64,000 nt of DNA from Nitrospirota bacterium (GTDB lineage: Bacteria > Nitrospirota > Thermodesulfovibrionia > UBA6902), in the NCBI GenBank assembly GCA_040758255.1, contig JBFLVX010000001.1:132-64131 (forward strand), written 5' to 3'. Below, one piece after another: positions 13,178-48,128 of this stretch. The first letter of the stretch is position 1, and every line of letters starts with the position of its first letter. Below the pieces are notes generated by a model. The model saw only the letters and a list, made by a program, of their open reading frames with translations. It searched no databases and was not told the origin of the DNA. Both the position numbers and the translations under genes were made by a program.

Positions 13178-13413
13178 GGGCGGTATTATATGCCTTTTAC
13201 TAAATGACATTTCTTGGTAGTGAAACATAGAAAACAGATAATTTACAGAAGCTGCACTTAATAAATGGCACGCAGTATCGTCCTTTCTGTCTGAATTGCT
13301 GCGTGAGAGTAGCATAGATTTGAACGTGTGGTCAATAATGCTACCGTGTTGAAAAATGATGATCGCCAAAGATCACTGGACCGGAAATCAGATGCCGACT
13401 AACGCGAACAACG

Positions 13414-13845: not shown

Positions 13846-13983
13846 GTATATTTATCACCCAGTTATTAGATAGTTAACTGGATAATAACAGAAATTATTA
13901 GTCGTATCAATAAAATCACAATTGTTTATTTGGCAACTATTGATCGCCATATACTAACCATATTGACTAATATCAATTTTGTC

Positions 13984-17897: not shown

Positions 17898-17898
17898 T

Positions 17899-20169
17899 TT
17901 ATCTCTTTGAGAAACTCTTCTTCCGCCTCTTTATTGCCATGAAGACAGCTCCGGCAGGTATGAACGCCATTAAGATATCTACACCATTTGCATCCTCTCC
18001 GGCAGTAATTGAGCAGCCCCCGCCTCCACCCCCTTCGGAACTCTCCCCGCTGGTTGTAGCGCCGGCTTCATTTGAGTAGCTTGAACTGCCCTCGGGATTG
18101 TATGCCTTTATACGATAATAAAAGAGAGTTGACGGATTGAGACCTGTATCATTGTATCCGGTTACATTGGCGCCAACTGCCGTTATTTCAGAGTATGTTC
18201 CTCCGTCTCCTGTCTTCCTCTCTATCCTGAAGCCTGTTTCATTATTTGAATTATCCGTCCATGTCAGATTTATACTGGAGCTTGACGCTGCTGCCGCATT
18301 CAGGCCGGAAGGAGCATTCAGCGGGACTAAATTAAGAACCGCACTATATGCGTTCAGCCTTCCGCCTGTTAAGGTCCGGCCTGACATTGAGGGTTTTAAA
18401 TCTGCAGAATTCAAGATGATCTCCTTTGCCTGCAGACTGCTCAAAGATGGATTGAGCGAAAGGATCAATCCCGCGGCGCCTGATACATGCGGGGCTGCCA
18501 TAGAAGCCCCGCTTTCATCAGCGTAAGAATAATTGCTTACAGTTAACGGCTCCCTTACAAGCCTGACATCATCAATATAGACCCCGTCAAAGTTCGCTGA
18601 GTCATCAGACGACAGGCCGAAGCCAAAATAGAAACTGTCGAGACTCTCGGCAACAGAGGTGAAATCAGCAGAATATGAAAGAAAGTTTCCATTTGTGCTC
18701 CCTGTCCTGAAATCTGTCCAATCCCAGTTGAGGCCGTCCGGCGAATAATTAATATCAAGGTAGTCAATGCCGTGTTCAAGATCAAGAACCCCTCTCCATT
18801 GAAATGACATGGTATAACGGTTATCCTTTTCAGAAACTACCTGTGACGCATACCATACGCGTGAACTCGTATTGTTAAGGTAATTCGCGGAAGGGCTGTC
18901 CTCAAGGCTGTTAGTGCCGCCAACGCCTGTGCCGCCTGTCACAGCCCATGTGCTATTTGTGCCTCCCCTGTCCCACCCCAATAAAGGGAGGCTCCCAGAT
19001 GCCCCTTCAAAATCCTCGCTGTAAACTGTTACCGGGCTTCCGGAGCTTATTATGGGGAAAGTGCTATATATATTAATCCCGGGGGCTGCAATGTCTACTG
19101 AATTTGTCCCAAAATTGGAAAATGTGGCGAGTGTATCATTCTGATCGGAGGCGGTGACAGATATTATGTTTGAACTTGTGTAGCTTGCGGGATAAAAAGG
19201 GATCGCATCATTATTCGTTCCGCTGTTTCCCGCAGCGCAGACAATTAGAGCGTTTGAGGCGTCTATTGCGTCCTTAAGCACCTGGCTGTACCCGCTTCCG
19301 CCCCAGCTGTTGTTTATTACTCTGGCTCCTTTGGCGTTTGCATAGAGAATGGCGGACGCGGCGTCGGCAGTTGTGCCGCTTCCGCTTACACCTAAAATTC
19401 TCAGGGGCATTATTTGCGCGTCCCACATCACACCTGCAATGCCGATGCTGTTATTGCCCTGCGCCGCGATAGTGCCTGATACATGAGTGCCGTGGCCGTC
19501 ATAGTCGGAAGGGTCGTTGTCATTGCCGATGAAATCCCAGCCATTGCAGTCATCTATATAACCGTTGCCTTCATTATCAATGCCGTCCGAACAATTTGTC
19601 TCCCCGGTGTTTCTCCAGATGTTGCCGGAAATATCCGGATGGCTGTTTGCAAGGCCCGTATCAACAACCGCAATAATCACGTCATGCGAGCCTGTTGTTA
19701 TATCCCATGCTTCAGGCGCGTCAATATCAGAATCGGAGGCGCCTCCGCTCTGTCCGGTATTGTTAAGCCCCCAGAGGTTGTTGAAATACTGATCCGAAGG
19801 CTCAGATGCTTTATGGATGATATAATTCGGTTCAGCATACTCGACATTCGGGTCATGCTGATAATGTTCGATCGCTTCTGCAACAGTGATATTTTCGGGA
19901 AGCTTTATCTGATCAACCATGATCTCTCTCATCTCTCTCTTCCTGACCGCATTGATGGAGGAATGAAGCCCTTTCGCTGTAATCCCGGATGTGCCGTCAC
20001 GGAACCTCACAAGAACTTCTCCCGGCACATAGTCAGCCTTATTTTTCGTATCAGCGGTTATGCCGCTCTGCTCTATTCCGGATATGCTGCTGGAAGATCC
20101 GCAGCCAAGCAAAGAAGAGAGTACGATCATTACTGCTGAAACTTTTAAAAATATTGGAATACTCTTCAT
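17899..20169 (-). CDS. secreted subtilisin-like serine protease (S8) with lipoprotein signal, fibronectin-III-like domain and a Gly-rich/Cys + TM + basic C-terminal sorting-signal-like tail
   Basis: Catalytic triad contexts VAVVDTGLAN (D), HGTHVSGTIAA (H), GTSMAAPHVSGAAGL (S); signal LLGCGSS; FN3-like INLTWTDNSNNETGFRIERK; tail GGGGGGCSI...VDILMAFIPAGAVFMAIKRRKKSFSKR. Confidence 0.85.
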   Translation of the reverse strand: MKSIPIFLKVSAVMIVLSSLLGCGSSSSISGIEQSGITADTKNKADYVPGEVLVRFRDGTSGITAKGLHSSINAVRKREMREIMVDQIKLPENITVAEAIEHYQHDPNVEYAEPNYIIHKASEPSDQYFNNLWGLNNTGQSGGASDSDIDAPEAWDITTGSHDVIIAVVDTGLANSHPDISGNIWRNTGETNCSDGIDNEGNGYIDDCNGWDFIGNDNDPSDYDGHGTHVSGTIAAQGNNSIGIAGVMWDAQIMPLRILGVSGSGTTADAASAILYANAKGARVINNSWGGSGYSQVLKDAIDASNALIVCAAGNSGTNNDAIPFYPASYTSSNIISVTASDQNDTLATFSNFGTNSVDIAAPGINIYSTFPIISSGSPVTVYSEDFEGASGSLPLLGWDRGGTNSTWAVTGGTGVGGTNSLEDSPSANYLNNTSSRVWYASQVVSEKDNRYTMSFQWRGVLDLEHGIDYLDINYSPDGLNWDWTDFRTGSTNGNFLSYSADFTSVAESLDSFYFGFGLSSDDSANFDGVYIDDVRLVREPLTVSNYSYADESGASMAAPHVSGAAGLILSLNPSLSSLQAKEIILNSADLKPSMSGRTLTGGRLNAYSAVLNLVPLNAPSGLNAAAASSSSINLTWTDNSNNETGFRIERKTGDGGTYSEITAVGANVTGYNDTGLNPSTLFYYRIKAYNPEGSSSYSNEAGATTSGESSEGGGGGGCSITAGEDANGVDILMAFIPAGAVFMAIKRRKKSFSKR

Positions 20170-20240
20170 AGTCTGCCTTTCTTAATGGATTATAAGGACG
20201 TATACCTGTCTTCTACTATATGAAGTACGGGATACCGGCG

Positions 20241-21026
20241 TCAAGATTTTTCCCTGCCGCTAACAGGAAAATATAGGGCATCTGCAAGTTTTGTAAAATC
20301 TATTATGCTTAACTTCTCCGGCCTGATGCCCGGGTCAATGTCAGCTTTCCGCAAAGCATCTTTGATGCCTTCAAATTTCTTTAAACTGTTTGTTACCGTC
20401 TTTCTCCGCTGAGAAAATGCGGCCTTCACCACGCTGAAAAAAAGCTCCTCATCTTTGACCGGATAAATAGGCGATTGAGAGACCTCAAAACTCACAACTG
20501 CTGAATCCACTTTTGGAGGCGGCAGAAACGCCTTGCGGGATACTGTAAATTCCAACTTTGGCTTTGTGTAAAACTGAGCAGAGATTGAGAGCACACCGTA
20601 CTCCTTGCTCCCGTGAGAAGCAGCGATCCTTCTTGCCACTTCCTTCTGCATCAGCAATGTCATGCTCGGTATCTTATCTTTGAATTCGAGCAGCCTGAAT
20701 AAAAGCGGTGTGGTTATATAGTATGGAATATTGGCAACGACCTTAAAATTGCCTTCAATCGTATCATACGGAAACTTCAGGGCATCGGCCTGTATGATCT
20801 GAACATTATTGTTAGCAGAAAGAATTCCCTCAAGCTTCTCAATCAATCTCTTATCAAGCTCAATTGCTATGACCTTCTTAGCATAGAGCGAGAGAAATCT
20901 TGTTAGCGTCCCCAACCCCGGGCCTATCTCAACAACCGTGTCATCCGGTGTCACACCGCTGCACTTTATAATCTTCTTAAGTATGTTGGGGTCAAAAAGA
21001 AAATGCTGTCCAAAAGGGCGTTTCAT
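20241..21026 (-). CDS. rsmA: 16S rRNA (adenine1518-N6/adenine1519-N6)-dimethyltransferase RsmA/KsgA
   Basis: MKRPFGQHFLFDPNILKKII N-terminus, SAM motif VVEIGPGLGTLT, NIPYYITTP motif. Confidence 0.9.
   Translation of the reverse strand: MKRPFGQHFLFDPNILKKIIKCSGVTPDDTVVEIGPGLGTLTRFLSLYAKKVIAIELDKRLIEKLEGILSANNNVQIIQADALKFPYDTIEGNFKVVANIPYYITTPLLFRLLEFKDKIPSMTLLMQKEVARRIAASHGSKEYGVLSISAQFYTKPKLEFTVSRKAFLPPPKVDSAVVSFEVSQSPIYPVKDEELFFSVVKAAFSQRRKTVTNSLKKFEGIKDALRKADIDPGIRPEKLSIIDFTKLADALYFPVSGREKS
20986..21026. repeat. 41-bp direct repeat copy 1 (covers the rsmA start codon and first 13 codons)
   Basis: ttggggtcaaaaagaaaatgctgtccaaaagggcgtttcat; second copy at 21855-21895 differs at one base. 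Confidence 0.85.
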
Positions 21027-21035: not shown

Positions 21036-21374
21036 CTATTTACCGCTAGCTGCCAGCGCATTCAATCTCTTCAATGTGTCGGGGAATTTTCTGACAAGCA
21101 GAATCAAGGCCGCGGCCTGCATATTAGGTTTTGAGCTGCCCTGCTCCCACTTTTCAAGCGTGCGGGGAGATACGCATAACTGATGGGCGAAGACAGACCT
21201 TGAAAGGCGCAGTTTATCACGCACTTCGCGGATTATTTCAGGTGTAACGGCAGGCTTATATTCTTTACCGACCTTGTATTCGCGCAAGGTTATCTTGCCT
21301 TTACGGTGTTGCCTTATTTCTTCAATCCCTGTTTTCAATTCCTGAAATAAATTTCTCTTTTTCATGCGTTCCAC
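21036..21374 (-). CDS. XRE-family helix-turn-helix antitoxin (HigA-like) of a type II TA pair
   Basis: HTH segment LSRSVFAHQLCVSPRTLEKWEQG; 112 aa; overlaps the upstream toxin gene by 13 bp in toxin-first order. Confidence 0.7.
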   Translation of the reverse strand: MERMKKRNLFQELKTGIEEIRQHRKGKITLREYKVGKEYKPAVTPEIIREVRDKLRLSRSVFAHQLCVSPRTLEKWEQGSSKPNMQAAALILLVRKFPDTLKRLNALAASGK

Positions 21375-21679
21375 TCCTCTACTAATTTTCTGAGCGACTT
21401 ACACTCATCAGACGTTAAATCCGCGACTTCATTCTTCCCATACAGTGTCAGCAAATATATCTGATCAGCGGCTGTTTGAAAATAATAGATTATCCTTATT
21501 CCGCCGCGCTTCCCTTTGCCTTTGGATTTCCAACGTATTTTTCTCAACCCGCCGGTCCTCTGCATTATATCCCCGGCCTCAGGATTCTCTGCAATATATA
21601 ACTGAAAATCCTTGTACTCTTCATCGGTCAGATAATCTGACACCAGTCTGGTAAATATCCTTGTTTCGATAAATACCAT
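21362..21679 (-). CDS. RelE/ParE-superfamily toxin (HigB-like, phage-related killer protein type)
   Basis: KGKGKRGGIRIIYYF motif characteristic of this RelE-like family; 105 aa; toxin-antitoxin gene order typical of higBA. Confidence 0.7.
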   Translation of the reverse strand: MVFIETRIFTRLVSDYLTDEEYKDFQLYIAENPEAGDIMQRTGGLRKIRWKSKGKGKRGGIRIIYYFQTAADQIYLLTLYGKNEVADLTSDECKSLRKLVEEWNA

Positions 21680-22098: not shown

Positions 22099-22893
22099 TC
22101 ATTCCCTGAAAATATTTTTGTGATGATATTCTAAAAATTCTTTTGAAGGCAAAAATTTATCTGGCAACATGATAGATTTATTTTCATATTTAAGAAACAT
22201 CTCGTTAACTATATTTTCTTTTTTAAAATCATTGAAATATTTCGAAATTTTGATTTCATAATTAGCCGTAACAGTTATAAAACCTTTATCAAATGCCTTA
22301 TCGTGAAGCGAATTTAAACACAAACCATTATGAGGATTTAATCTGTTTTTTTCATCTTTTGACCAGGGAATAATATGACTTGCAACTAATAAATCTGGAA
22401 TTGATAAACCTGTAATGCAACACTTCAAATTATAAGAGGAAAGAATTGTAGAGCGAAAAAAACTTTGATTAACCCTTGCTTTGATTATTGCTTCCCTTTC
22501 CGCTCCTGCTGGAATGTCAGCAATGTTTATTTCTGAAAATGTCTCTAAAGGTCGATTTGCAAATTTTGCAATCAACAATTCGCTTTCATAAGCAAGATTA
22601 TCCCAATCATTATTGAATTCTTTCCAGATAATTTCATCCAGCTTGCTTGTATTTCCTAAACCAACAATTCCTCTCTTCTTTAATTCAGGGTCAAAACTTC
22701 CAAAATTTCCGATTTTCATTTTGACAGAATTTGGTGTCCTGCCTATGATTTTTGCAATACGAATTATATCTGGATGCTTTGAACTAACTCTATTGAAAGG
22801 AATTTTACAATAAAGATTTAACGCAACAATTGTTTGTTCTCTTGTCCATGTATCTTTTGGCATTTTAGTATTTCCTGACCCTTTTTTATCCAA
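22099..22893 (-). CDS. stand-alone HNH endonuclease (HNH_2-type, restriction-endonuclease-like) in a low-GC patch
   Basis: ASHIIPWSKDEKNRLNPHNGLCLNSLHDKAFDKG HNH core; strongly AT-rich codon usage compared with flanking genes. Confidence 0.7.
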   Translation of the reverse strand: MDKKGSGNTKMPKDTWTREQTIVALNLYCKIPFNRVSSKHPDIIRIAKIIGRTPNSVKMKIGNFGSFDPELKKRGIVGLGNTSKLDEIIWKEFNNDWDNLAYESELLIAKFANRPLETFSEINIADIPAGAEREAIIKARVNQSFFRSTILSSYNLKCCITGLSIPDLLVASHIIPWSKDEKNRLNPHNGLCLNSLHDKAFDKGFITVTANYEIKISKYFNDFKKENIVNEMFLKYENKSIMLPDKFLPSKEFLEYHHKNIFRE

Positions 22894-37300: not shown

Positions 37301-39788
37301 CCTGAGAAAAGAAGAGCATGCCCCTTAGAAGATTCTCTGCCAGGAACTCTTCGCCGATCTTTTCAAGTATATCTGCACGCGCAAACTGCGCCCTGTCTTT
37401 CTCTCTTCCGTCAGAGCCATGCATTATGTTTGTCCATAGCTGAAGCGCGTCAACCAACTCGCCATTCTTTTCAGCCGTTTCCGCATTGGTAATAAGTCCG
37501 GCGATATCTGTCTGAGAAAGGATTGAACTCTTGGCCTCAGGTTTTATTGGAGGAGCTATTCCTGCAATCACTGTCTTCTCCATGTAATTTAGAAAACGGG
37601 TCAGAGTCAGGAGGTGATTGGAGAGCTCTATTTCAGATATCGCCTCTTTCTCAAGAAGGGGCAGCGGTAAAATTATCTTCTGGCCTGTGTAAATCCTGTC
37701 TATATCTTTAACTTCAGGATTAAATTCCTTGAAGATGCCAATATACTTCTTCATGATAATATCTTCCGGCAGCCTTAATTCTCTCTTTAGAATATTAATC
37801 AGCACCTCGTCTTTTTTAACAACGTATATATGCTGAGCATATCCTTCGGATCGCAGCGTCTCATGCAAGGATGCGGACGGTCCGTGAAGCAGGGATGCCT
37901 CAGAGACGCTGGCTAAAGATTTGATAAGGAGATTATAAGGATCATTCACCTTCTTTAAGAAGTCCAGGAACTCGGTTTCTGACAATTGATACGGCCTTGA
38001 AGAGCGGTACTGAAGCGCTGCTACGCTGCCGGCAAGAGAATTCGATGACCATAATTTAACCTCCTTGACATCCTGTGGAAGAGGTATCTCGGCGAACGCA
38101 GCCTTTATCAATCGGCCGACAGGCTCTCTTGCGCTGAAGGCTCCGCTCAGGGTTGTATCGGTCAAAGAAAGGACATCTCTCGCTTTAATTATCTTAAGCG
38201 CATTCTCTGCTGTATTTGCCATATACCGGCTTTTCGTGAGGCCTTCCTCTTTTGTGATGAGCATCTTAACAGGCTGCATATCATCAAGCTGTACAATAAT
38301 CTCCTGCCCGTCAATCGTTGTCTCCGCATCAACGATCACCCTGAGAAACGAAGGAGCAAACCGTTGAGGAAGGCTGTATCTTTGAATAAGCGGCTCGCTT
38401 TCAGTCCCTGAAGGAATAGGGATAAAAAGAGAGCGTGAAAGAGTCTTCAGCCCGTCATCAAGGTGCTGCTTTAAAACGAGCGCCTCATCAGGCTGCTGCG
38501 GCTCATTTAGCGCAGGAGTCATAAACCAGCAAAACTCCTGCGGCTCCCTGCTTAATTTATTTGAAGGCATGAGGTCGCGGTAAAATGTATGAGAAAGAAA
38601 TATCTCCTCCGCCTCTTTCTTCACCTCAGGATGATCAGGACGCTCAATGCCTTTCTGATCCATAAGCATGACAGCGGCAATGCCGCCCTCGCGCCTGCTG
38701 TTGTCCCGCCAGAGAAGTGCCGCGCTCTTTTTTGAGAGCGGCTCTTGCGCTCTCGCGGCATCCTGAAGCTCTTCATCGTTTATATCCCATGCAGATTTTC
38801 TAAGCATAGAGGGGGAACCTTCTTCCCTTGCCTCTTTTGCCGATACATCGGGCTCGTTTGCTCCTGCAAAGAGGTAATCAGGCGACTCCTGTTTTAAGAG
38901 CCTGATATACAGCGGTGCAGTTGTCTCCATCTCAAATGTATGCTCGCCCTCCGGTATCTCTATGTAAGCTGTCTCCTCACGACCGACCGCCTCGGGAAAT
39001 CCGTTCACAAAAGTTGTTGCGATCTCAGGCTTTGTCTCAAATTCAAGGGTCTGGAACGGGCGGTCATCAATCTTTAGATAGATATTGTATGACTGCGCCC
39101 TCCTGCTCTCGGGAGAGGGATAAGCGATGCGGCTTTCAATCGCCACCCTCTGAGCCTCTTTTGTGCTGAATGATACAGGCTCATGGGGTTTGATAAGCTT
39201 AAAGTTCTTCTCAACAGATCTTCCGCTGCGGTGAATGCGGGCGAACTTTCCGGGCAGGCTTATCATCCTGCGGTATGGGGCTATCTCATCCTGCGTCTCA
39301 TGGCGCGAGATAAAAAAGGCTATTTTTATGCCCTCGTCTTTATCAGGCTTACGGCTTACGCGCACGAGCGAAGGCTCCCTGTTTAAAGGAGAGAATATTA
39401 TTGATTTTAAGTCCGCAGAGAATTGATAAGGCAGAAATGAATAGGCTCCGGAGCCGTTTGAGACTGCAAGTTCAATGTCGTCAATAGAGAATTCGCATTC
39501 AGGATTATAAATACGCGCTGTCTCGCCGGAAGGAACCCTGAAGGTTACAAACTCTCCGGGCTTAAGCTCAGCCATATGAAGACCAGCATCGTAATTATAA
39601 GAAAGCTTCTTGCCGCTTACCCATTGCGGCGGCCCCTCTATATTATCCCAGCGCAAAGGCAGGTCATACTGCTTAAGAAGCCTTAACTGAAGATCGTCAA
39701 GCTTGGCGATGCTCCCTAAGGGAACCAGTATCAGGCAAAGAATCGTTAAGCAGAAAATCGCGGATTTCAGTTTTCCGTGTCTATTCAA
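34362..39788 (-). CDS. giant (1808 aa) secreted protein with signal peptide, LysM-like segment, TPR-like helical repeats and a beta-strand-rich C-terminal region ending in Tyr (possible outer-membrane export scaffold)
   Basis: Signal MNRHGKLKSAIFCLTILCLILVPLGSIA; LysM-like YVVKKDEVLINILKRELRLPEDIIMKKYIGIFKEFNPEVKDIDRIYTGQKIILPL; alternating-hydrophobic C-terminal 400 aa; 20-nt overlap with the PgsB-like gene downstream. Confidence 0.55.
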   Translation of the reverse strand: MNRHGKLKSAIFCLTILCLILVPLGSIAKLDDLQLRLLKQYDLPLRWDNIEGPPQWVSGKKLSYNYDAGLHMAELKPGEFVTFRVPSGETARIYNPECEFSIDDIELAVSNGSGAYSFLPYQFSADLKSIIFSPLNREPSLVRVSRKPDKDEGIKIAFFISRHETQDEIAPYRRMISLPGKFARIHRSGRSVEKNFKLIKPHEPVSFSTKEAQRVAIESRIAYPSPESRRAQSYNIYLKIDDRPFQTLEFETKPEIATTFVNGFPEAVGREETAYIEIPEGEHTFEMETTAPLYIRLLKQESPDYLFAGANEPDVSAKEAREEGSPSMLRKSAWDINDEELQDAARAQEPLSKKSAALLWRDNSRREGGIAAVMLMDQKGIERPDHPEVKKEAEEIFLSHTFYRDLMPSNKLSREPQEFCWFMTPALNEPQQPDEALVLKQHLDDGLKTLSRSLFIPIPSGTESEPLIQRYSLPQRFAPSFLRVIVDAETTIDGQEIIVQLDDMQPVKMLITKEEGLTKSRYMANTAENALKIIKARDVLSLTDTTLSGAFSAREPVGRLIKAAFAEIPLPQDVKEVKLWSSNSLAGSVAALQYRSSRPYQLSETEFLDFLKKVNDPYNLLIKSLASVSEASLLHGPSASLHETLRSEGYAQHIYVVKKDEVLINILKRELRLPEDIIMKKYIGIFKEFNPEVKDIDRIYTGQKIILPLPLLEKEAISEIELSNHLLTLTRFLNYMEKTVIAGIAPPIKPEAKSSILSQTDIAGLITNAETAEKNGELVDALQLWTNIMHGSDGREKDRAQFARADILEKIGEEFLAENLLRGMLFFSQEEQTREEALIKLTDFYRKRSDSEGLLSLFAAAAIRQPDYKKFVALSELLTENSEYEMALALGLLLPEPEQPLQAMIKSAHKAGWWKVFETLVEKIKETEEGHYWRGLKLEKDGDYTNAIYHLRRAGAKGMERASAIEKAVSIRSDLTGNSSDLTEWERWQAQHPQPFIWEEAPYIVTDYAGAANLYNKERDMYSRAFISQKDRPVKLTLMGPVSIRIEARPLHTDKSAEPLDGWLEIRGQGSLKVLPISNNVPSQNLVISGSEGMTPGIKAVAEYNVGAGLHHIEVSGGDMPLLIQTYIKSPEIRIGVLPPITPDTLAALTNGKIVGESECPVNEADATPALIDNDPANEVLKQMITLLWIAEKRPEQRSHALAKAEELSLKHPYAHGTRPLLNRIFRGTTLMPYRNIQSSAGVRMIEEKGWDPFSPGLRIRKALLSPVSPDEHVLYGYDSEIIYMKNLQSKEIQVTATIEDVGYLPLLPMTGYFQLDSERVDNINLAEGRQKTVLLMKIPAGEHFLRIGIKEPVPNQFLRMHIAEVKKGKEISVWDRPVELQYYIATEEEPVVMEIEGPSVLQIEELSNGKIYEGYRKIEEGWQTVKIPARDGQKETLYRFYRRGVKDEPVTPVRKYIAESEPKPEPLISPASPKVSAYLKLKDDYPLGGQEDGTWTLSGEFVERRNLQEDSNFQDGLEEFIELKATYRSFDDLRRTLFRTDMLGRIREFGGPTLGLKGSLDWRPINSSLDFQFGGSLYLQYPDKFLSGQREWSVLLNAKAAKRIELGTKTFHVPSLAVFQRYLSMESYGSYIPEKVDQDIFTPYKFGHKRGLILTDTLNYRPWLDTNLYLGASVVSNEDMDIFNPDNISLRAGWRQLIGAFQVNAEYRRNHYLSDDDRNNSSDRERVELEVLWEKWSKSERRLELGLDLIHELDTGVNSGMIFLRWHMGNGRGLRDFNYGEIDFLDIRERRVPSERNNTIEDAEERY

Positions 39789-40277
39789 TTAAATTATTCC
39801 TCTAAGATAGAATTGCCTCGCCGACTCTTTTTCTACACTCATCAGCAACCGGTAATGGGTCCAAGAGAGTTCCGGTCTTATGATTGGCAATTCGTCACGC
39901 AGCGCGTGACCTTTTCGCCGGGGCAAAGATTCATCACGCACTGCGTGATGAATTACAGACGAAGATTGTGAACGCAACGAGTTCAGATTTTCAAAAGAAA
40001 AATAGAATAGACGCATATAACGCAGGTTAGTCTGCGTGAAGCCCCTGCCGAATTCTGCCGTTAGCCTTCCAGAAAGCTCAGAGATAAGTTCATCTCCATA
40101 TCCTGCCTTTGCTCTGCCTTGCTGCTCCTCCTCTACAATTACCCTGCCAATATGCCAGTAAGCCTGTACCATTGCAGTATTGATATTCCTGGCAACGGCG
40201 CTTCTCGCCTCATGCAGGAGAGACTTTATATTCTCAAATAACTTTTTGTGCGGCTGATTTTTAACTATCTTGTTCAT
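39789..40277 (-). pseudogene. truncated N-terminal fragment of a DUF1016 (YhcG-like PD-(D/E)xK nuclease) gene
   Basis: YWHIGRVIVEEEQ, GYGDELISELSGRLTAEFGRGFTQTNLRYMRLFY and ELSWTHYRLLMSVEKESARQFY match the conserved N-terminal half of DUF1016. The frame stops where the nuclease core would begin, directly abutting the 1808-aa gene start. Confidence 0.55.
39894..39952. promoter_or_regulatory. pair of related palindromes TCACGC-N3-GCGTGA, 20 bp apart, about 100 bp upstream of the giant-gene start (operator-like)
   Basis: Seen directly: gtcacgc-agc-gcgtgac at 39894-39910, and a perfect 23-bp palindrome ttcatcacgca-c-tgcgtgatgaa at 39930-39952. Confidence 0.35.
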
Positions 40278-40583
40278 TGTCTAAAATCCTTGCCTATGAT
40301 AGTTTTATGGTTTCTTACTCTTCAGTCTTTTATTCACGGCCTTCCTGTCCCCGCTTCCCAGACACATTATACATTGTACATTGATTTATGCAATTTTTGA
40401 CTGAAAAATGCGCTGATATTTGATATGTTTTAAACATGGTTCAGGAGATCCGGAAGTTCATAACCACAAAATGCCAAGCTTTGCTCTTGTTTATTGCATT
40501 AATATGATAATATTCATATCATACATCAAGGAAATGTCCAATGGACATAATAATTGTTATACGAATAAAAAGAGAGATAACTA

Positions 40584-41396
40584 ATGATTCAACACCACTT
40601 CGAGGCAATTGAGAAAGCAATTATACAACTGGCCAAAATTCAAGATATAGCTGGTCATTCTATTCATAAAGGAACACCAAGGGAACTATTCATAAGAAAT
40701 TTTTTAGAAAAGCATTTGGGAAAAACAGTCAGCTTTGGAACGGGTGAAATAATTGATGCTGATTCGAAGCCAAGGAAATCAAGAAATCAGCACGATATCG
40801 TTATTTACAGAAATGAATTTCCGAAACTCGATTTTCAAGGTGGAATATCTGCATTTCTTGCAGAATCTGTTCTGGCGACCATAGAAGTGAAGTCGAATTT
40901 GGATTATAAAGAATTTAAAAAATCATTCAAATCAGCATTGAAGTGTAAAAAATTAAAAAGAAACTATTTTAGCGGTCCAACATTCTGGTATTTCCCCCCG
41001 AAAATATTGAATTATATCGTCACGTATGATGGCCCGGCAAAAATGAAAACAATATATGATTGGATTAAAAAAATAGAAGGGGAATTGCAATTTAGTTACC
41101 CAACGTTGCCTCCAACTCAGGAAGAGCGCAGAAACATTCCATCCCCTGGACTTGATGGTGTGTTCGTTATGGGCAAAGGGTTTATCCATTTTGATAATTT
41201 CATGATAGATGGCATAGATCCAAAAATAAGAAAAGAAAACCAATGGATGAGATGGGCGTTTGTTGATGCAAAAATTGGAAGTCTGCTCATGTTGTTTCTA
41301 AATCTTGCTCAACAAATTTGTATTCCTCAGCAAAAATCTATTCAATTAATTCCATATATGAAAAGAATAAATGGTAAGCTTCAATGGGGAAATTGA
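40584..41396 (+). CDS. hypothetical protein with a PD-(D/E)xK-like nuclease core motif (D ... E-V-K), encoded in a low-GC insertion
   Basis: QHDIVIY (candidate acidic D) followed about 35 aa later by AESVLATIEVKSN (ExK); no other recognisable domain; strongly AT-rich; 6-bp-arm palindrome ATGTCCAATGGACAT at 40534-40548 just upstream. Confidence 0.4.
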   Translation: MIQHHFEAIEKAIIQLAKIQDIAGHSIHKGTPRELFIRNFLEKHLGKTVSFGTGEIIDADSKPRKSRNQHDIVIYRNEFPKLDFQGGISAFLAESVLATIEVKSNLDYKEFKKSFKSALKCKKLKRNYFSGPTFWYFPPKILNYIVTYDGPAKMKTIYDWIKKIEGELQFSYPTLPPTQEERRNIPSPGLDGVFVMGKGFIHFDNFMIDGIDPKIRKENQWMRWAFVDAKIGSLLMLFLNLAQQICIPQQKSIQLIPYMKRINGKLQWGN

Positions 41397-41419
41397 AAAA
41401 ATCGTATAACAAGTCATTG

Positions 41420-41526
41420 CAGTGAACGAGTACCACAGGACACTTTTACAGATGAGCGATGACTTTAGATTTACAAACCATCTTTTTTGCTTTTTAACGT
41501 CATACAGTGGTACTCGTCACTGAATT
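41420..41526. repeat. about 17-bp imperfect inverted repeat (cagtgaacgagtaccac / gtggtactcgtcactg) separated by 69 bp, between convergent genes at the edge of the low-GC insertion
   Basis: Seen directly; the intervening sequence contains a T-run (catcttttttgcttttt). Confidence 0.35.
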
Positions 41527-41544
41527 CTACGTTGCAACCGTTAA

Positions 41545-42435
41545 TTAATTCTCCGCGCCCTCTATACATCCCCGAAAACTTGTCCTGACCTTTTTATCAT
41601 CCTTTAAGATCATCCTCATCGGCTTGCTCAATTCAATATGAATAAAGCCGTAATATCCCATCTTCCGCAAAGCAATGCCTGTTGTATTGGTGCTGCCTCC
41701 AAGTTCCTTTATCTCAATGGGATAAAGGCTTGACATGCCTGAGACATTATTTCCAAGACACTTGTCTATCTGCTCTGCCAGACTGCCCGGAATTTTACTG
41801 CCGGAGCTTACAATTATATCCGTCTCCAAGCCTCTTTTACTTCTGCGCTCCTCCTTTACAAAACCGTGCAGTTGAATTATATTCCCCAACGGATAAGCAT
41901 GCGCAAAGGCGCGGGCATAGGCAGTGAAATAACTCTCCTTCAAATGCGCAAGGTCGGAATTTCCAACCTTGTCGTCATCGTCAGAATTACGCGAAACAGT
42001 ATTCCATGCGGCAGACACAATCTTGCCTTCAAGCAAAAGATCGAGCGTTATCTCTCCTGTGTAAAGGTCATCAACGCTGTGAGGTGACTGGATCGCTAAC
42101 TTTTTATAATTCGAGAGTCTGAATATGTAAAAACCACGTCCTCTCTTCTTCCCCTCTTTCTCCTGAACGAGTATGAACTCCTCTCCTCCGTCTTTAATCC
42201 TGACAACCTTAAAATTGAGCTTATCCCATTCTCTTTGCACATCATCCGTAAGCCTGCCCTTGAAAAGGTATCCAAAGAGTTCCTCGGCTTTTCTAAGCTC
42301 CGTTGCTGAGGGTTGATTATAAGAGCCGCCTCTGCTCTCATTCAGGAAACGCTCTATTGCAGTTTCCGCATGAAGGGCAGAAGCATTCAGAAATATAAAG
42401 AGGAGGACCAGAAGCCTAATAAATAATGGTGTCAT
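41545..42435 (-). CDS. secreted hypothetical protein; tentative resemblance to the gamma-PGA hydrolase (PghP/PF05908-like) zinc-peptidase fold
   Basis: Signal peptide MTPLFIRLLVLLFIFLNASALHA; RGFYIFRLSNYKKLAIQSPHSVDDLYTGEI resembles the PghP N-terminal DYRI...APHGGGIEPGTSE segment; QLHGF resembles ISIHG; from memory only. Confidence 0.45.
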   Translation of the reverse strand: MTPLFIRLLVLLFIFLNASALHAETAIERFLNESRGGSYNQPSATELRKAEELFGYLFKGRLTDDVQREWDKLNFKVVRIKDGGEEFILVQEKEGKKRGRGFYIFRLSNYKKLAIQSPHSVDDLYTGEITLDLLLEGKIVSAAWNTVSRNSDDDDKVGNSDLAHLKESYFTAYARAFAHAYPLGNIIQLHGFVKEERRSKRGLETDIIVSSGSKIPGSLAEQIDKCLGNNVSGMSSLYPIEIKELGGSTNTTGIALRKMGYYGFIHIELSKPMRMILKDDKKVRTSFRGCIEGAEN

Positions 42436-44881
42436 CAGTCAATCCTCTCTCTTTGTAAAATTTTCTCTCTTCAAAAAGCCCCGGCAAGACCCTGCTCATG
42501 GAGAGATAGCCTCCTGTCCCGGACTCAAGGGCAAACCGGATGTGATAATCTCCGGGAGGCAGGTCGCTTCCGAGCCGGACAAAGAACAACTGTCCGCTTT
42601 CAAGGTAATCATTGTATGTATTGAGCACCGCCGACTGTTCCCTGATATCCGGCTTTATGCTGAACCTCTGCCTTGAGAAGGTCCAGCTCTCAAAAGGCTC
42701 AAGCAGTACAGCCCCAGCCGTATCAACGCTTGTCAGGATAGTATTTCTCTCCATATTCTTTGAAGGGCTGTAGAAGCGCACGGACAGGAGTTCATCTGAA
42801 GAGGTCTGCTTCTTATATATAAAGTCCAGCCCTTTCTTATCAAACCTGTTTACGAACCTCTTGAGAAAGACACGCTCGCCTCCCTCGATATTATTAAGAT
42901 AAAATTCCGCCTTCCCCGGGGATTCTACTCTTATATCATGCCTGCCGAATTTTACCGGGGGCAGTTGGATCTCTCCCCTTAAACCGGCTATACGGGTCTC
43001 ATAATACAGTTTGTTATCAAGAAAAAATTTCACGGAGACCGGCTCGGACGACTTTCGTATGTAAATAAGCGTTGGAGATATTTTGGCAAGACCGGCTATA
43101 TGGACAAAGTCCACGGATATATTATGATTGAGAGAGAGGAGCGAATAATAGCCCTCTCTATTTCTTCTGCCGGAATCCGGCGCTGCTTCCGTTGCTGTTA
43201 ATATGTAGCGGGACGGCCTTTTGCCTTCAGGATGAAAATCCTCCCATAGGTACCGGCCTGCCGCAAGGTCTTCGCTATCCTCAGCAGGGCGCGGCTGAGC
43301 GGCTATAAGCAGCGAGCGTCCGCCTGATGCCAGTCCTTTGTAATTTGCAGGACGCACGGCAAACCATCCCGGCTGCTTCTCTTCCTGAGCGGCTGAGGCA
43401 TAGTAGTCTTCAGGCACTCTCACTTCCCTGGTCATGCCATCGGGCCTTGTATAAGCCGCTATCATAATCTCTGAGCCGGATGAAAAGCGTATGGAGTCTA
43501 TGTTGTGAGAGATATAAAAATGGCTGACGGCAGGCTCGGAAATATCCATACCGCCGGGATTACCGGCCATCCAGTCGTAAAGAGAGAGCGTTTCTGGTAA
43601 TGGGATTGAACCTGATCTCACAATGCCGCCGTCTTTATTTATAAGCTGGTAATCCGCATATCTTAAATTCTCCGGTGTCCCGCCTTCCTGCTTTGGAATC
43701 TGATAACGAAATACAGCCCTGAGCGGAGTCGGCCTGTCGCCTGTATGGTGAATCTTGAACTCTACAGGCTGCCCTTCCCTCATTATAAATGACCTCGTAT
43801 AAATGGGAACCGGCGTGATCTCAATCTCTTCATCGCCGTTTATAAGAAAGGCTCTTACCGTTATATTATCTGAAGGGCTGACCTCTATCATCCCGCCTTT
43901 GAAAAGCTCTTCAAAACTCGCATTGCCGTCCTCCCATGAGACCGTATAATCCATACGCATGCCTATGCCCCTGCCGTACCATCTAAGGTTTATATCCTGC
44001 GGGCTCCTGCCTGACATGTTGAGAAATTCAAGCCGTATCTTACCCCCTTCTTCAGGGACCGGGATAATGCCCCGATGCCCTTCCTTTATGTACAATCCTA
44101 CGGGTTGGAGATCGAAGTCTGCCGCTTCGCCCTCAGACTCCTGCAATACATAGAGCTTCCTGCTCTGATAATCTTTGCCGTCAGCGCCTAACGGGCCGAG
44201 GGGTATCCATGTCCTCTGTATGAGGTTCCGTTTCTCCTCGTCAGCCAGTAATTCATGCGGGTAGACATTACCTTTGGTAAGCCTCGTCTTCTGTTTGTCG
44301 CTTAAGCGTCTCCATAGAAAGCCAGGCTGTTCTTTTTCATGTTCAAGGTAAATATAGAGCCTCAGCCCGACATCAGATACAGATTCGTCCTTAGAGAGAA
44401 GGCGGAACCTTATGAATTTCCCCTTCTCCATACCTGAGAAATCAATCCTCATGCTTCGTGAATCAAACGGCTCAAGGTCAGAGTCTATATAAAAAGAGTT
44501 TGTAAAAATATCCCCTTCCTCATCTTTGAAGGTTGTCATTTTGGCGCGGTGATGATAAATACGGTCTGAGAGTATATTCTCATTTCTGTCTAACACCTGA
44601 AACTGATACGCATAATGCCTCTCATCGTCCGGCTTTGCGTCATAAGAAGAGGGCATATTCGCATTTGTGACCACCCTTGCCTGACTCCCTATCAGCGGGA
44701 TCGGAAAGGAGGTCCACTTCTTGTCATCAAGAATGTAGGAGATGCTGACTATGGCGCGGTCCATCCTCTTCTGGTACAGCCTGTCTTTGGTCGTAAGCGC
44801 CTGGAACAGGGGTATGCCGAACTTGAAAACAATAAAGCCTGCAAGCAGGGTTATAATTGTCCCTTTAATTATGTATCTCAA
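42416..44881 (-). CDS. large (821 aa) N-terminally membrane-anchored hypothetical protein, co-transcribed with the PgsC-like fusion
   Basis: Single N-terminal TM (IITLLAGFIVFKFGIPLF), no recognised motif; 17-bp and 20-bp overlaps with neighbouring genes indicate an operon. Confidence 0.5.
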   Translation of the reverse strand: MRYIIKGTIITLLAGFIVFKFGIPLFQALTTKDRLYQKRMDRAIVSISYILDDKKWTSFPIPLIGSQARVVTNANMPSSYDAKPDDERHYAYQFQVLDRNENILSDRIYHHRAKMTTFKDEEGDIFTNSFYIDSDLEPFDSRSMRIDFSGMEKGKFIRFRLLSKDESVSDVGLRLYIYLEHEKEQPGFLWRRLSDKQKTRLTKGNVYPHELLADEEKRNLIQRTWIPLGPLGADGKDYQSRKLYVLQESEGEAADFDLQPVGLYIKEGHRGIIPVPEEGGKIRLEFLNMSGRSPQDINLRWYGRGIGMRMDYTVSWEDGNASFEELFKGGMIEVSPSDNITVRAFLINGDEEIEITPVPIYTRSFIMREGQPVEFKIHHTGDRPTPLRAVFRYQIPKQEGGTPENLRYADYQLINKDGGIVRSGSIPLPETLSLYDWMAGNPGGMDISEPAVSHFYISHNIDSIRFSSGSEIMIAAYTRPDGMTREVRVPEDYYASAAQEEKQPGWFAVRPANYKGLASGGRSLLIAAQPRPAEDSEDLAAGRYLWEDFHPEGKRPSRYILTATEAAPDSGRRNREGYYSLLSLNHNISVDFVHIAGLAKISPTLIYIRKSSEPVSVKFFLDNKLYYETRIAGLRGEIQLPPVKFGRHDIRVESPGKAEFYLNNIEGGERVFLKRFVNRFDKKGLDFIYKKQTSSDELLSVRFYSPSKNMERNTILTSVDTAGAVLLEPFESWTFSRQRFSIKPDIREQSAVLNTYNDYLESGQLFFVRLGSDLPPGDYHIRFALESGTGGYLSMSRVLPGLFEERKFYKERGLTDDTIIY

Positions 44882-47800
44882 AATTACCTCTGAATGTCAT
44901 ATTGCTGGCCCTTGAATCCACAAACCTCACAATATTCTTAAGCGATATATCCCCCTTGTCAAGAACCAGGGACTTGCCGGATTCCCTCGGCAGCAGGTTT
45001 GCAACAAGGACCAGCCTCCCTGATGGAGAATAAACCAGCATAAATGACTGTTTTGAATTAATATCTATCAGCCTCTCGATCCTGTGATCAGGCCAGTAAT
45101 AGAGTATGTTCTTCAGGTTTATAATATCCTGCGTAGCTGTGTACTCCCGCAGTTCCGAGATCATCTTAGGAGAGACAGAAGAGGAATCGCCGAAGATCCC
45201 CTTCTGAACGATATGGTTATACAGGAGGTCTTCCACGGTCTGAATGCCCAAGGCCTTGACCTCTGCCTGCTGCCATTTATTCTCAGTCTGCTGGCGGTAA
45301 GTCTCCCTGGCAAAAGGCGAGAGCCAGAGCATTGCAAGCTCTTTATTAACCGACTGCTCAAGATAGAACAAGGGAGCGGTAAAGCCTGTTTCATATCCTG
45401 ACGTTTCAATAGTCCCATCAACAAAACGCGTGCTCAATTCATCTTCTTCAAGTATTTTAATCAACCCTGCGCCAAGGCTGCTCAGCCTCTTCCTCTCAAC
45501 AGCCCCGTTGTCAAAGGCTAACAAGACATCGGCTGAAGGCATGGGCCTCCCCTCTTTTATGCCGAGAGAGCGGCATTGGACTGTCATGAACGTCTCGTCT
45601 CCAGCCTCACGTAAGATGACCTGATCTGCAAGGTTAAAGAGGTTTGATTTATTCTCCATCTTTATCAGGTCTGAGGCCTGATCAGCATTGGCGTAAGGAT
45701 GGGTACCACCTATCAGAAGCGCCCGCGCCTTCATCCTCTCAAACATTGATACGCCGTACTCAAACACATGAAGCTCGTAAAGCGGCCTCGGTATCTCTAT
45801 GATGTAATTGCCTGATGCGCCGAGCCTTAACACATATGTGCCCCAGTAGCGGCGTTTCCGGAGGCCTTCATCTTCAAGGAGTATGATATAGTCCTGCTCT
45901 GATATCCTGTCCCTGTACATGATGACCTTGTACCCAAGCAGCGCCGCGGCTGAAGTTATTATGCGCAGTTCTTCCGAACCCTGTTCCGACCACTTGCCTT
46001 CCCTGTACTCGCTTTTAGATATTCTTACCAGCGGGGCCAGCACCTCTTCGTCAAAGAGGAGCAGCTCTTCGAGCTTCGGCTCTACATACAGGTCTGACCC
46101 CTTCTCCGCAATTATCCCCTTTGTATTTAAAAGCCAGTCCTGAAGGTACCCGTCTATTCTCTGCTGGTGCAGTTGGACGCTCACATTATCCCCGGAAGGC
46201 AGGGTCTTGAATAATATCCTCCTTAAATCAGCCCTGTTTATAAATATCTCCGCGAATCCGGAAGGTGTTGAGTCACGCTGAATGTTGTTGAAAGGAGTCT
46301 TGCCCCACTCTATCTTAATGTCCCTGATAAGGTCTTTAAATACCGCAAGGTCAAGCCCCGGAGGCAGTTCCGACTTTACCCATAAAGTGGTCTTAGGCTC
46401 AGGCGGCTCTATCTCTTTTCCGCCGGGGCGTTTGCCGCTCAGGATGCGTATCTTATCAATTGTGTAGCCGCGCACCTGAAGCACGTTCCTCCGCGCTGTC
46501 TCTTCATGAAATTTATGAAAGAATGTATAGGGCTTTGTAAGAACATTAAGGGGCTCCTGATCAGGCCCTTTTATGCTCGCGCCTGAAACAGCCAGCGCCC
46601 TGCCCTGCAGCAGGGTGAAGAGCCTTGCGCCTGCCTCAACGGCAGCCCATTCATCAAGCGGCGCCGGAACTTCTACAAGAGGCCCTGCCTTCGCCATTGT
46701 ATCAATAGCGTAAATTCCCCTTCCCCTGGATTCCCCGTCCTCTTTAAGATAGATGTATCTATCATTTATCAGAAAGAGCTTATAGTTTATGCCCTCTAAT
46801 AATATTTGCGCCTGCAGAAGTATATCCTCATCGCGCTTCTCACTGTAATTTAAAAGCATTCTGATCGCCCTGGAGAATGCCTCTGTCTCCTGCGGGACAG
46901 GGATCTGCGCCTCCTGTATGCCGCGGGTCTGGTAAATGGCAACCTTATCTTTTCTTATAATATCTATAAGGTTTACGCCTTCAAGCCGGGCTATCCTTTC
47001 TGCACCCTCTGCCTCAAGAGCGGTCGTTCCTTCAATCCACGGGTTTTTCACATAGGTGAGGGAATACCCGATTACGCTTGCAGCTACAACCGAGACGAGC
47101 GAGACCTGCAATACAGCCCGTGCAACCTTTAAGGTGATGCTCTTTTCATGCATCTTTATTGCTATCAGGGTCGGAAGCAGATAGCCAAAGCCGAAGAAAT
47201 CCGTAATCTTTTGCTGCGGCAGCAGCCAGATAATGATATATGAAAGAATGTACTTATATACAAAGCTTATGCTGAAGAACAAGAGGATCTTCCGCGCTCC
47301 TTCAATCGTCATTCTTTTAAAAAGAGGCAGGCGTAACACCAGTATGCCGAGAGAGAGAACAATAAGCGACTCAATTATTGATGCCGCGATCTTTGTTGGA
47401 TTATACCACTGAAGCGCCAGCAAAGAGGGGATAAGTATGCCGCTGAATTCCCAGCCGTAGAGCAGGTTCATCCGCGAAGCAACAAGGCTTGTGGTGATAA
47501 GTATTATGTATGCCTTGGGGCTTGCCAGCATTGAGGCGGCAATGTCTTCATAGACATATCCAAGGTTGCTTATCGTGAAGTTTGTATATTCCATCAGAAC
47601 AAAACGCACAATAAGATAAGTAATGCCGACAGTCACCGCGAGCGGGAAAAGCCCGCGCAGAAGCCCCGGCTTCCAGAACTGATTGGCGATCAATGCAACG
47701 ATGATAAGGCCGAAGCTGTGGAGGTTGTTGCGGTAGTCGAAGTTTACATAAAACCGGCTGTTGACCATCTCTCCGATATACGGCAGGAGAAAGACATCAA

Positions 47801-48128
47801 ATAATATTCTTACAAACAGACTGAGCAGAAGCAGGGCAAAGAAGCGGTCTCTTCCAAAGAGGTTGTTCCATTTAAAAGTCTTTGAAAGGCTCTCGGAGAA
47901 GAGCCACACGATAAGATATGTGACGATCCCTTCAATGAAGACAGATACCGCCGCCCATGGCTTGGATATAATGAGGGGGACAATGTATCCGGGAACAACC
48001 AGGCCTGATAAGACCCAGCCGAGACGCAGATTGAAGAATGTTGAGACTATTACTCCGACAAAGACGGTGGTGGTAACTGAGCTGGCCAAGCTCCCCTGAG
48101 GAAAGATGTTGAGGAAGCTGCTCTCCAT
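44865..48128 (-). CDS. 1087-aa protein: N-terminal tandem duplication of PgsC/CapC-like membrane domains (about 360 aa) fused to an about 720-aa soluble domain containing degenerate PghP-like repeats
   Basis: Copy 1: LGWVLSGLVVPGYIVPL...TYLIV...FGRDRFFALLLLSLFVRILFDVF...GLIIVALIANQFWKPGL (cf. PgsC GIVPAGLVVPGYLGL...TYVIV...YGRRKFAAMLITGIVLKIAFDFL...GIIVPGLIANTIQKQGL). Copy 2: GWEFSGILIPSLLAL ... GFGYLLPTLIAIKMHEKSITL. Soluble part has RGIYAIDTMAKAGPLVEVPAP and NYIIEIPRPLYELHVFEYG ... LLIGGTHPY repeats. Confidence 0.75.
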   Translation of the reverse strand: MESSFLNIFPQGSLASSVTTTVFVGVIVSTFFNLRLGWVLSGLVVPGYIVPLIISKPWAAVSVFIEGIVTYLIVWLFSESLSKTFKWNNLFGRDRFFALLLLSLFVRILFDVFLLPYIGEMVNSRFYVNFDYRNNLHSFGLIIVALIANQFWKPGLLRGLFPLAVTVGITYLIVRFVLMEYTNFTISNLGYVYEDIAASMLASPKAYIILITTSLVASRMNLLYGWEFSGILIPSLLALQWYNPTKIAASIIESLIVLSLGILVLRLPLFKRMTIEGARKILLFFSISFVYKYILSYIIIWLLPQQKITDFFGFGYLLPTLIAIKMHEKSITLKVARAVLQVSLVSVVAASVIGYSLTYVKNPWIEGTTALEAEGAERIARLEGVNLIDIIRKDKVAIYQTRGIQEAQIPVPQETEAFSRAIRMLLNYSEKRDEDILLQAQILLEGINYKLFLINDRYIYLKEDGESRGRGIYAIDTMAKAGPLVEVPAPLDEWAAVEAGARLFTLLQGRALAVSGASIKGPDQEPLNVLTKPYTFFHKFHEETARRNVLQVRGYTIDKIRILSGKRPGGKEIEPPEPKTTLWVKSELPPGLDLAVFKDLIRDIKIEWGKTPFNNIQRDSTPSGFAEIFINRADLRRILFKTLPSGDNVSVQLHQQRIDGYLQDWLLNTKGIIAEKGSDLYVEPKLEELLLFDEEVLAPLVRISKSEYREGKWSEQGSEELRIITSAAALLGYKVIMYRDRISEQDYIILLEDEGLRKRRYWGTYVLRLGASGNYIIEIPRPLYELHVFEYGVSMFERMKARALLIGGTHPYANADQASDLIKMENKSNLFNLADQVILREAGDETFMTVQCRSLGIKEGRPMPSADVLLAFDNGAVERKRLSSLGAGLIKILEEDELSTRFVDGTIETSGYETGFTAPLFYLEQSVNKELAMLWLSPFARETYRQQTENKWQQAEVKALGIQTVEDLLYNHIVQKGIFGDSSSVSPKMISELREYTATQDIINLKNILYYWPDHRIERLIDINSKQSFMLVYSPSGRLVLVANLLPRESGKSLVLDKGDISLKNIVRFVDSRASNMTFRGNFEIHN

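Follow-up and report, generated by a model that had tools for sequence, protein, structure and literature searches.

Integrase-less arrays of gene cassettes are known as CALIN in IntegronFinder 2, and a lone attC site as SALIN. NucC is a cyclic-tri-AMP-activated endonuclease of cyclic oligonucleotide-based anti-phage signalling systems (CBASS) and of type III CRISPR systems; it is a homotrimer, and cyclic tri-AMP (cA3) drives its assembly into hexamers and its activation. The attC sites of cassettes consist of an R box with conserved AAC/GTT, an unpaired spacer, an L box, unpaired L'' bases and a variable terminal structure (PMC5027507); they have been recorded in Nitrospirota and often occur in clusters that have no integrase (PMC9668308). 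Damona, a single-gene DUF6602 cassette of the Vibrio cholerae chromosomal integron, is reported to be among 16 cassettes with anti-phage activity and to protect alone (Darracq et al., bioRxiv 10.1101/2024.07.02.601686). Nucleases of the DUF1016/YhcG family are often found beside restriction-modification genes (PMC9881135). Here we describe a locus in which these elements meet, on a 64,000-nt stretch of DNA from a Nitrospirota bacterium (GenBank assembly GCA_040758255.1, contig JBFLVX010000001.1, positions 132 to 64,131 of the forward strand; hereafter the window). Five large minus-strand genes (30188-48128) form an operon that is interrupted between the gene for a 296-aa protein and that for an 1808-aa protein, here called the giant gene. 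Judged from comparison with related loci, the intervening DNA is composed of three units with different histories rather than of one insertion: an integron-type gene cassette carrying a DUF6602 nuclease gene and its own attC-like site, a conserved 228-bp element, and a truncated DUF1016 gene lodged in the 5' end of the giant gene (Table 1).

The operon encodes proteins of 1087 aa (with two CapC-like segments), 821, 296 and 1808 aa and a 1397-aa HEAT-repeat protein (Pfam); proteins of the window have database entries at 100% identity. Apart from the CapC-like and HEAT segments these proteins have no Pfam match, and the "exopolymer" function that has been attached to them is a guess. In the window the stop codon of the 296-aa gene (41545-41547), which is the distal border of the insertion site, is separated from the start of the giant gene (39788) by 1,756 bp containing two open reading frames (ORFs), exactly as an earlier reading of the sequence (hereafter the preliminary description) had placed them. 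The same description called the whole interval AT-rich, which holds for about 40200-41500 (34-35% G+C against 46% in the window) and fails for the DUF1016 part, the composition of which (43.9%) is not distinct. The cassette has 34.8% G+C, the conserved element 34.2%, the window as a whole 46.2% and the giant gene 48.7%.

To place the interval in context, we examined the contigs that carry orthologues of the 296-aa protein (74-87% identity), and one further locus was obtained from a metagenome scan. Two Nitrospirota loci have an empty site: the stop codon of the 296-aa orthologue overlaps the ATG of the giant gene as ATGAATAA in L006 and as ATGAGTAA in L012. In six distant genomes (a Burkholderiales bin, Nitrosomonas, Mariprofundus, Legionella impletisoli, a deltaproteobacterial bin and Desulfomonile; 36-42% identity) all five operon genes are contiguous, with nearly every junction overlapping. 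A scan of species genomes with the single 296-aa protein as query gave nothing, and the alignment-based scan gave distant orthologues only. The distant operons (L021, L022 and L024-L027, about 4200-20700 in each) have genes of about 1086, 830, 297, 1750-1890 and 1390 aa; in L025 two ORFs (1120 and 682 aa) take the place of an undivided fourth gene.

Other close relatives are filled, carrying differing small genes at the junction of the 296-aa and giant genes, all of which point away from the giant gene: a 209-aa gene and OmdA in L001, a 93-aa gene and an acetyltransferase in L002 and L003, an acetyltransferase and a 70-aa partial ORF at the contig end in L004, CopG-like and other genes in L005, and a zinc-ribbon gene in L007. 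Because L006 and L012 are empty, the six distant operons are contiguous and the other relatives hold other cargo, the sequence comparison identifies the interval DNA as an insertion into a normally gap-free operon, in agreement with the preliminary description. L001 retains about 120 bp (11530-11650 in cargo orientation) that are 91% identical to the beginning of the acetyltransferase cassette found whole in L002-L004, which points to decay or replacement of cassettes at this site.

The plus-strand cargo of the window has the anatomy of an integron-type gene cassette. It consists of a single ORF followed by a recombination site that begins 8 nt past the stop codon, with no other ORF of note. 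One of its ends is TTATAC, which directly follows the junction G at 40556, and the other is the G of its core site GTTGCAA. On either side of the DUF6602 ORF lies one arm of a perfect 11-nt inverted repeat (TTGTTATACGA at 40554-40564, 20 nt before the ATG, and TCGTATAACAA at 41402-41412, 6 nt after the stop). Complementarity of the two ends is expected if such a unit circularises at G|TT, and the first bases of the cassette (G|TTATAC) are exactly complementary to its own inverse core (GTATAAC). The agreement between the cassette 5' end and its own inverse core amounts to 11/11 positions in the window, 7/7 in L001 and L011, and 6/7 in L002, L019 and the second site of L001, the chance of such a 7-mer pair being 0.002 per locus.

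In its 5' half the attC-like site reads inverse core GTATAAC, a 5-nt spacer AAGTC and an L'' arm ATT[G]CAGTGA[A]CGAGTACCAC with two unpaired bases (in brackets). The 3' half comprises a 70-nt variable centre with a T-run, the L' arm GTGGTACTCG-TCACTG-AAT, the spacer TCTAC and the core GTTGCAA, so that the strand from the L' arm through the core reads GTGGTACTCGTCACTGAAT-TCTAC-GTTGCAA. The inverted repeat with an internal T-run that had been reported at one boundary (CAGTGAACGAGTACCAC at 41420-41436 and GTGGTACTCGTCACTG at 41507-41522) is present and is the stem of this site. By inspection the site has the published attC architecture, which is also found in L001, L002 and L011. The sites of the window, L001 and L002 share NNNNAAC, 5-6 nt, ATT[S]CAG...CTGAAY, 5-6 nt and GTT, with the extra base on the L'' arm as in canonical attC; in L001 and L002 it is the first cargo gene that is followed by such a site, with a nearly identical L box (ATT[C]CAGCG...CGCTGAAT). 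When the bottom strand was folded as DNA, z was -3.1 for the window and -3.3 for L001. A transcription terminator was considered for the repeat and rejected: its RNA fold goes only modestly beyond shuffles (z -2.0 to -2.6), and the 70-nt centre excludes a simple intrinsic terminator. An Rfam search of 39000-42500 gave no match at E <= 1.

The unit of ORF plus site recurs in other contexts and arrays. The homologue in L020 (79% identity) has the same cassette ends (G|TTATACGG ... CGTATAGCAA) in a different flank, and that in L019 (71%) belongs to a co-oriented six-gene array, including an Mrr_cat gene, with attC-like sites after four of the genes. A third, in L011 (Vreelandella profundi, 48%), lies between the canonical sites GCCTAAC...GTTACGT and ACGTAAC...GTTAGCG. 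The window cargo thus resembles integrase-less cassette arrays in its short ORF with an imperfect hairpin, AAC/GTT cores, 5-nt spacers, unpaired L'' bases, a 5' end complementary to the inverse core, co-oriented cargo, recurrence elsewhere and the lack of an integrase nearby. It differs from the usual arrays of this kind in that its site lies between otherwise translationally coupled operon genes, with a second site at the next junction in relatives, and in that it docks on a lineage-specific 228-bp element in the place of attI, with no intI beside it; moreover, the window genome has only one attC at the site, unlike multi-attC arrays. A complete integron, in which intI, attI and a cassette promoter stand beside the array, was not found among the 26 window ORFs compared with Pfam, the position expected for intI being occupied by the giant gene. 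From its sequence features we assign the cargo to the integron-type gene cassettes with their own attC-like site, of the integrase-less kind.

The 228-bp element to which the cassette is joined is common to the filled loci. Window positions 40329-40558 and the DNA directly upstream of the L001 giant gene are 92.6% identical over 231 bp, and L002 matches in part. The element contains a minus-strand promoter-like site for the giant gene (TTGCAT 40393-40388, 16 nt, TATAAT 40371-40366), a plus-strand counterpart facing the cassette (TTGCAT 40494-40499, 17 nt, TATCAT 40517-40522) and a palindrome, ATGTCCAATGGACAT, at 40534-40548, and from this layout it looks like a divergent promoter region. Its distal end reads ...ATGTCCAATGGACATAATAATTG|TT (...AATTG|TT), and right after G|TT the cargo of three loci diverges (GTTATAC in the window, GTTCGGC in L001 and GTTAAGA in L002). 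At its proximal end lies GTG AAT AAA, which is the giant-gene start in L001 and L002, matches the ATG AAT AAA start of L006, and in the window is a relic that now opens a 10-codon mini-ORF (40337-40305). The insert had been suggested as the source of the giant-gene promoter; this is not supported, as the promoter-like sequence lies in the 228-bp element and belongs to neither nuclease gene.

A second cargo site is found in relatives one junction further on, where the giant gene meets the HEAT gene (L001 18015-19642; L002 17295-19640). It holds ParE/HTH_17 or HigB/HigA-like toxin-antitoxin genes and other small genes, together with canonical attC sites, for example TTCTAAC AAAGC GTT[C]CAGCCG...CGGCTGAAC TCAGC GTTATGT in L001. 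This junction has a conserved element of its own that likewise ends in ...AATG|TT, after which the cargo diverges; no relatedness was found between the conserved elements of the two junctions in the relatives. In the window the second site is empty, and the 3' end of the giant gene overlaps the HEAT gene by 20 nt (34362-34381). The second insert of L001 is flanked by a perfect 29-nt direct repeat of the gene-overlap region (18015-18043 and 19614-19642), with the result that both flanking genes keep their ends.

The 270-aa product of the cassette gene matches DUF6602 in Pfam (E 1.6e-19) and, in PADLOC, "PD_DExK, Cas-associated" (4e-25) and NucC models (4e-8). The D...ExK core noticed in the preliminary description was recovered as D71...E101-x-K103, and the catalytic core comprises D71, E94 and E101-V-K103. 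The gene had also been described as an orphan, but 128 homologues, themselves about 270 aa long and up to 79% identical, are distributed over many phyla, among them Cyanobacteria, Verrucomicrobiota, Acidobacteriota, Myxococcota, Bacteroidota and Proteobacteria. All 32 invariant positions of a 37-sequence alignment are kept in the window protein. Judged by its length and these residues, the DUF6602 gene is intact and is neither an orphan nor a remnant. Plasmid and phage collections yielded one weak plasmid match (Leisingera, 32% identity) and no phage match.

The proposal that this protein would prove to have a nuclease fold was confirmed at the level of prediction. Its AlphaFold model (mean predicted local distance difference test score, pLDDT, 89.6) was matched by Foldseek to 14 NucC chains over the whole length (E 6e-13 to 1.6e-10, template modelling (TM) score 0.65-0.76), which were all of the significant matches in the PDB; nothing besides NucC was significant, the next best match having E 0.07. 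In addition, the DUF6602 family profile matches NucC chains with E 1e-8 and 2e-7, the QxD, E and ExK motifs being aligned. These results indicate a NucC-type, restriction-endonuclease-like fold for the modelled protein. The families named beforehand as candidates (Shedu/DUF4263, NERD and Mrr_cat) received no support, DUF6602 being the only Pfam match at E <= 0.01 and NucC the only significant one in the fold search.

Like NucC (PDB 6p7o, 6p7p, 6q1h, 6uxf and 7zgv), the protein has the whole-length fold and the catalytic D, E and ExK. Unlike NucC, to which it is 14-18% identical, it has the DUF6602 motifs GHxxHKGTPRE and GTGE and lacks a cyclase or Cas10 partner. The examined DUF6602 homologues are likewise solitary genes without such a neighbour, and no CD-NTase/Cas10-type family was matched among the scanned window ORFs (Pfam); of the features that define a NucC system, the fold and the catalytic residues are present and the co-encoded cyclic-oligonucleotide synthase is not. 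With Damona it has in common the DUF6602 domain, the matches to the Cas PD_DExK model and to that of the small CBASS endonuclease NucC, and the position as a single gene in an integron cassette; the host phylum differs. Because it combines the NucC fold and catalytic residues with a lone gene, and because Damona is reported to act alone, we take the DUF6602 gene to encode a putative self-contained anti-phage NucC-like DNA endonuclease.

The third unit, 570 bp long, interrupts the giant gene after its codon 3. The window is homologous to L001, L002 and L006 as far as GTGAATAAA and again from ATTTTCT (39758) onward, at most 3 nt of the target having been lost. The insertion contains 51 bp of upstream DNA, an ORF for a DUF1016 N-domain and then about 45 nt in which AGAGGA, 9 nt, TTG and ten new codons are found. 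The 162-aa ORF matches DUF1016_N (E 1.6e-34) over profile positions 1-114 of 137; family homology ends near 39804, about 160 residues in, the C-terminal PD-(D/E)xK domain (PF06250) is absent from the ORF, and no remainder follows. The fragment resembles DUF1016/YhcG nucleases (PADLOC candidate PDC-S02) in its N-domain and in the subfamily segment HAVRDE...HALRDEL, and departs from them in lacking the C-terminal nuclease domain and in lying inside the 5' end of another gene. A truncated DUF1016 gene abutting the giant gene had been recognised before, and in fact its TAA directly precedes the TTG of the giant gene at 39788 (TAATTG), where stop-start translational coupling may operate.

Although it has been hit at its start, the giant ORF is intact and has a plausible signal peptide. 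Ten new N-terminal codons (MNRHGKLKSA) precede the conserved hydrophobic signal segment and, by their sequence, appear to restore its positively charged n-region; no other canonical start keeps the hydrophobic segment of the giant gene. The evident present role of the fragment, as read from the sequence, is to provide the giant gene with a ribosome-binding site, a TTG start and the first 10 codons.

Three further interpretations of this insertion were examined, none of which gained support. Out-of-frame DUF1016 homology up to the insertion end gave chance-level matches only (E 1-5); the palindromes at 39889-39954 are not a small repeat inserted on its own, as they code for residues that this DUF1016 subfamily conserves; and the last ~20 nt, considered as a decayed duplicate of the old start, gave ACTGAAA-TCCGCGA as the best local match, the score of which is not significant (p about 0.15). 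Inside the fragment, minus-strand 39965-39994 has a promoter-like TTGAAA, 18 nt, CACAAT (9/12), about 180 nt upstream of the TTG, which could be an alternative internal promoter, such sites being no commoner than in shuffles. None of the 120 best matches to the fragment is full length, all being <= 282 aa, and several N-domain-only ORFs (about 140-175 aa) sit on long contigs; a 163-aa DUF1016 fragment of Nitrospirota lies directly upstream of a GmrSD type IV restriction gene (L015 4569-5060 and L016 6001-6492 among the loci examined). DUF1016 genes may be hit often by insertions, or genes with the N-domain alone may be genuine.

Table 1. Features of the interrupted operon junction, with window positions.
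Feature	Position	Strand	Basis
1808-aa giant operon gene, intact	34362..39788	-	ORF list; N-terminus 81% identical to L006
570-bp insertion after giant-gene codon 3, GC 43.9%	39759..40328	-	homology break relative to L001, L002, L006
New giant-gene translation start, apparent: AGAGGA, 9 nt, TTG	39786..39803	-	sequence
Truncated DUF1016 (YhcG-type) gene, 162-aa ORF	39789..40277	-	Pfam PF17761 only
Relic giant-gene start GTG AAT AAA	40329..40337	-	identical to giant-gene start in L001, L002
Conserved element, common to filled loci	40329..40556	.	nucleotide comparison with L001, L002
Gene cassette, 975 bp, GC 34.8%	40557..41531	+	exact ends, bracketing inverted repeat
Intact 270-aa DUF6602 gene, NucC-like PD-(D/E)xK (predicted)	40584..41396	+	Pfam, PADLOC, AlphaFold, Foldseek
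attC-like site	41404..41537	+	inverted repeat, layout, DNA folding
296-aa operon gene	41545..42435	-	ORF list; orthologues 74-87% identity

Based on these results, we think it probable that two separate insertion events took place in the operon, one bringing the integron-type cassette with the DUF6602 nuclease and the other the DUF1016 fragment in the giant gene. In the former, the junction of the 296-aa and giant genes would have become, in one Nitrospirota lineage, a docking site for integron-type cassettes, which would join exactly at the G|TT of the 228-bp element and point away from the giant gene. An integron integrase encoded at another locus would have mobilised the cassette, which may be expressed from the neighbouring element. 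In the latter, the 5' piece of a DUF1016 gene (570 bp) would have been inserted after giant-gene codon 3 by illegitimate recombination, an accident that the giant gene presumably survived because the insert offers AGAGGA, 9 nt and TTG with 10 codons rebuilding the n-region. Transcription of the giant gene probably still starts from the conserved promoter-like site and reads through the fragment.

Several observations weigh against this account. The attC site was assigned by manual criteria and DNA folding (a covariance model of attC sites was given up because the MAFFT alignment misplaced the 3' arms), and our own structural attC scan is not specific, with 16 real hits against 12-32 in shuffles, and can serve as a pointer only. 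The first unpaired top-strand base of the window site is G where the canonical base is C, and the cores GTATAAC and GTTGCAA fit RYYYAAC and GTTRRRY only partly. No integron integrase or tyrosine recombinase was found among 26 window ORFs compared with Pfam, a set that excludes the smaller ORFs and a number of large ones, and the annotation of L001-L003 shows none within 10 kb either. Not every copy of the gene is a cassette: in L008/L009 (6001-6849) a DUF6602 homologue with 67% identity stands by itself, flanked by kdsC and lptC, in an otherwise standard kdsA-kdsC-lptC-lptA-lptB-rpoN-hpf-ptsN-rapZ cluster, and no attC was recognised at the L008 copy. The conserved element is attI-like by position alone, and its promoter-like sites are consensus-like only: a promoter and terminator scan, the counts of which were no higher than in shuffles, did not list the conserved TTGCAT/TATAAT sites. 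Finally, the likeness to Damona is one of domain, defence-model matches and cassette context.

The account in the preliminary description was that of a defence-island or mobile-element remnant, with decaying nuclease genes and an insert that brought the giant-gene promoter. The DNA is indeed AT-rich, inserted and nuclease-encoding, the DUF1016 gene is truly a remnant, and relatives carry toxin-antitoxin and accessory genes at the same junctions, so that a defence-related mobile origin fits. However, the word remnant does not suit the DUF6602 gene, which is full length with every invariant residue kept, and the unit has exact cassette ends and an attC, which make it specifically an integron-type cassette; the promoter-like element is common to loci with unrelated cargo and was therefore not brought by either nuclease gene. 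In this generic form the remnant explanation appears decidedly unlikely. Even less probable is that the interval is native operon DNA or an artefact of metagenome assembly, an idea that can draw on the origin of the contig in a metagenome bin and on all three ORFs being open, and that we find hardly credible given that the interval is absent from eight orthologous loci and foreign in composition, that its flanks are collinear with relatives and its junctions base-exact, and that the conserved element also occurs in independent assemblies.

Two further explanations concern the nuclease itself. The DUF6602 protein might be an orphan NucC-type effector awaiting cyclic tri-adenylate from a CBASS cyclase or type III CRISPR system elsewhere, as its whole NucC fold, shared catalytic residues and PADLOC matches to "Cas-associated PD_DExK" and NucC models would allow. 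We regard this as unlikely, in view of the identity to NucC of only 14-18%, the missing cyclase or Cas10 gene beside the examined homologues and among the scanned window ORFs, and the reported DUF6602 cassette that acts alone. It could instead be a selfish gene akin to those of homing endonucleases, which cuts empty sites and copies itself in, the flanking repeats being incidental; a lone nuclease gene between conserved genes, here and in L008/L009 (where no attC was seen), and the lack of partner genes in any examined context would be in keeping with this. Yet in relatives this junction is filled with non-nuclease cargo that likewise joins at G|TT and has attC sites of the same kind, close homologues reside in multi-gene cassette arrays, and the fold is that of the non-specific regulated nuclease NucC and not of known homing enzymes, all of which makes a homing gene very improbable. 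Returning to the two-insertion account, a bolder extension of it can be formulated, in which the promoter-bearing elements before operon genes are integrase-less docking sites (attI equivalents) at two junctions, served by an integrase in trans and adopted as promoters. We hold this extension to be doubtful at present.

Elsewhere in the window, a low-GC patch (36%) at 13010-13845 contains two minus-strand ORFs (119 and 143 aa) with no Pfam match. A low-GC islet (33%) at 22099-22893 encodes a 264-aa HNH_2 endonuclease and adjoins genes for a RelE-like toxin and an HTH/MqsA-like antitoxin (21036-21679), with rsmA on one side and genes for AddAB-like helicase-nucleases on the other. Immediately downstream of the HNH_2 gene the DNA reads like what we take to be a possible remnant of a Vsr-type endonuclease, and attC-like flanks were not seen around this islet at 22 kb.

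The integron cassette and the DUF6602 defence nuclease are of known kinds, and the locus does not represent a new kind of system. What is unusual is the placement inside a normally gap-free operon, at a fixed junction beside a promoter-like conserved element and with no integrase found nearby. A vaguely defined AT-rich defence remnant is replaced by a mobile unit with base-exact ends, and the Vibrio anti-phage cassettes with DUF6602 now have counterparts in an uncultured Nitrospirota lineage and in the arrays of other bacteria. The locus indicates that cassettes can settle in a tightly coupled operon at G|TT junctions, breaking what was probably translational coupling, and the giant gene, struck at its start, seems to have persisted by borrowing a ribosome-binding site and a start codon from the inserted fragment. 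If the promoter-bearing elements did act as docking sites, the operon would be a small storage platform for defence genes, and cassette turnover could rewire the expression of the giant genes downstream.

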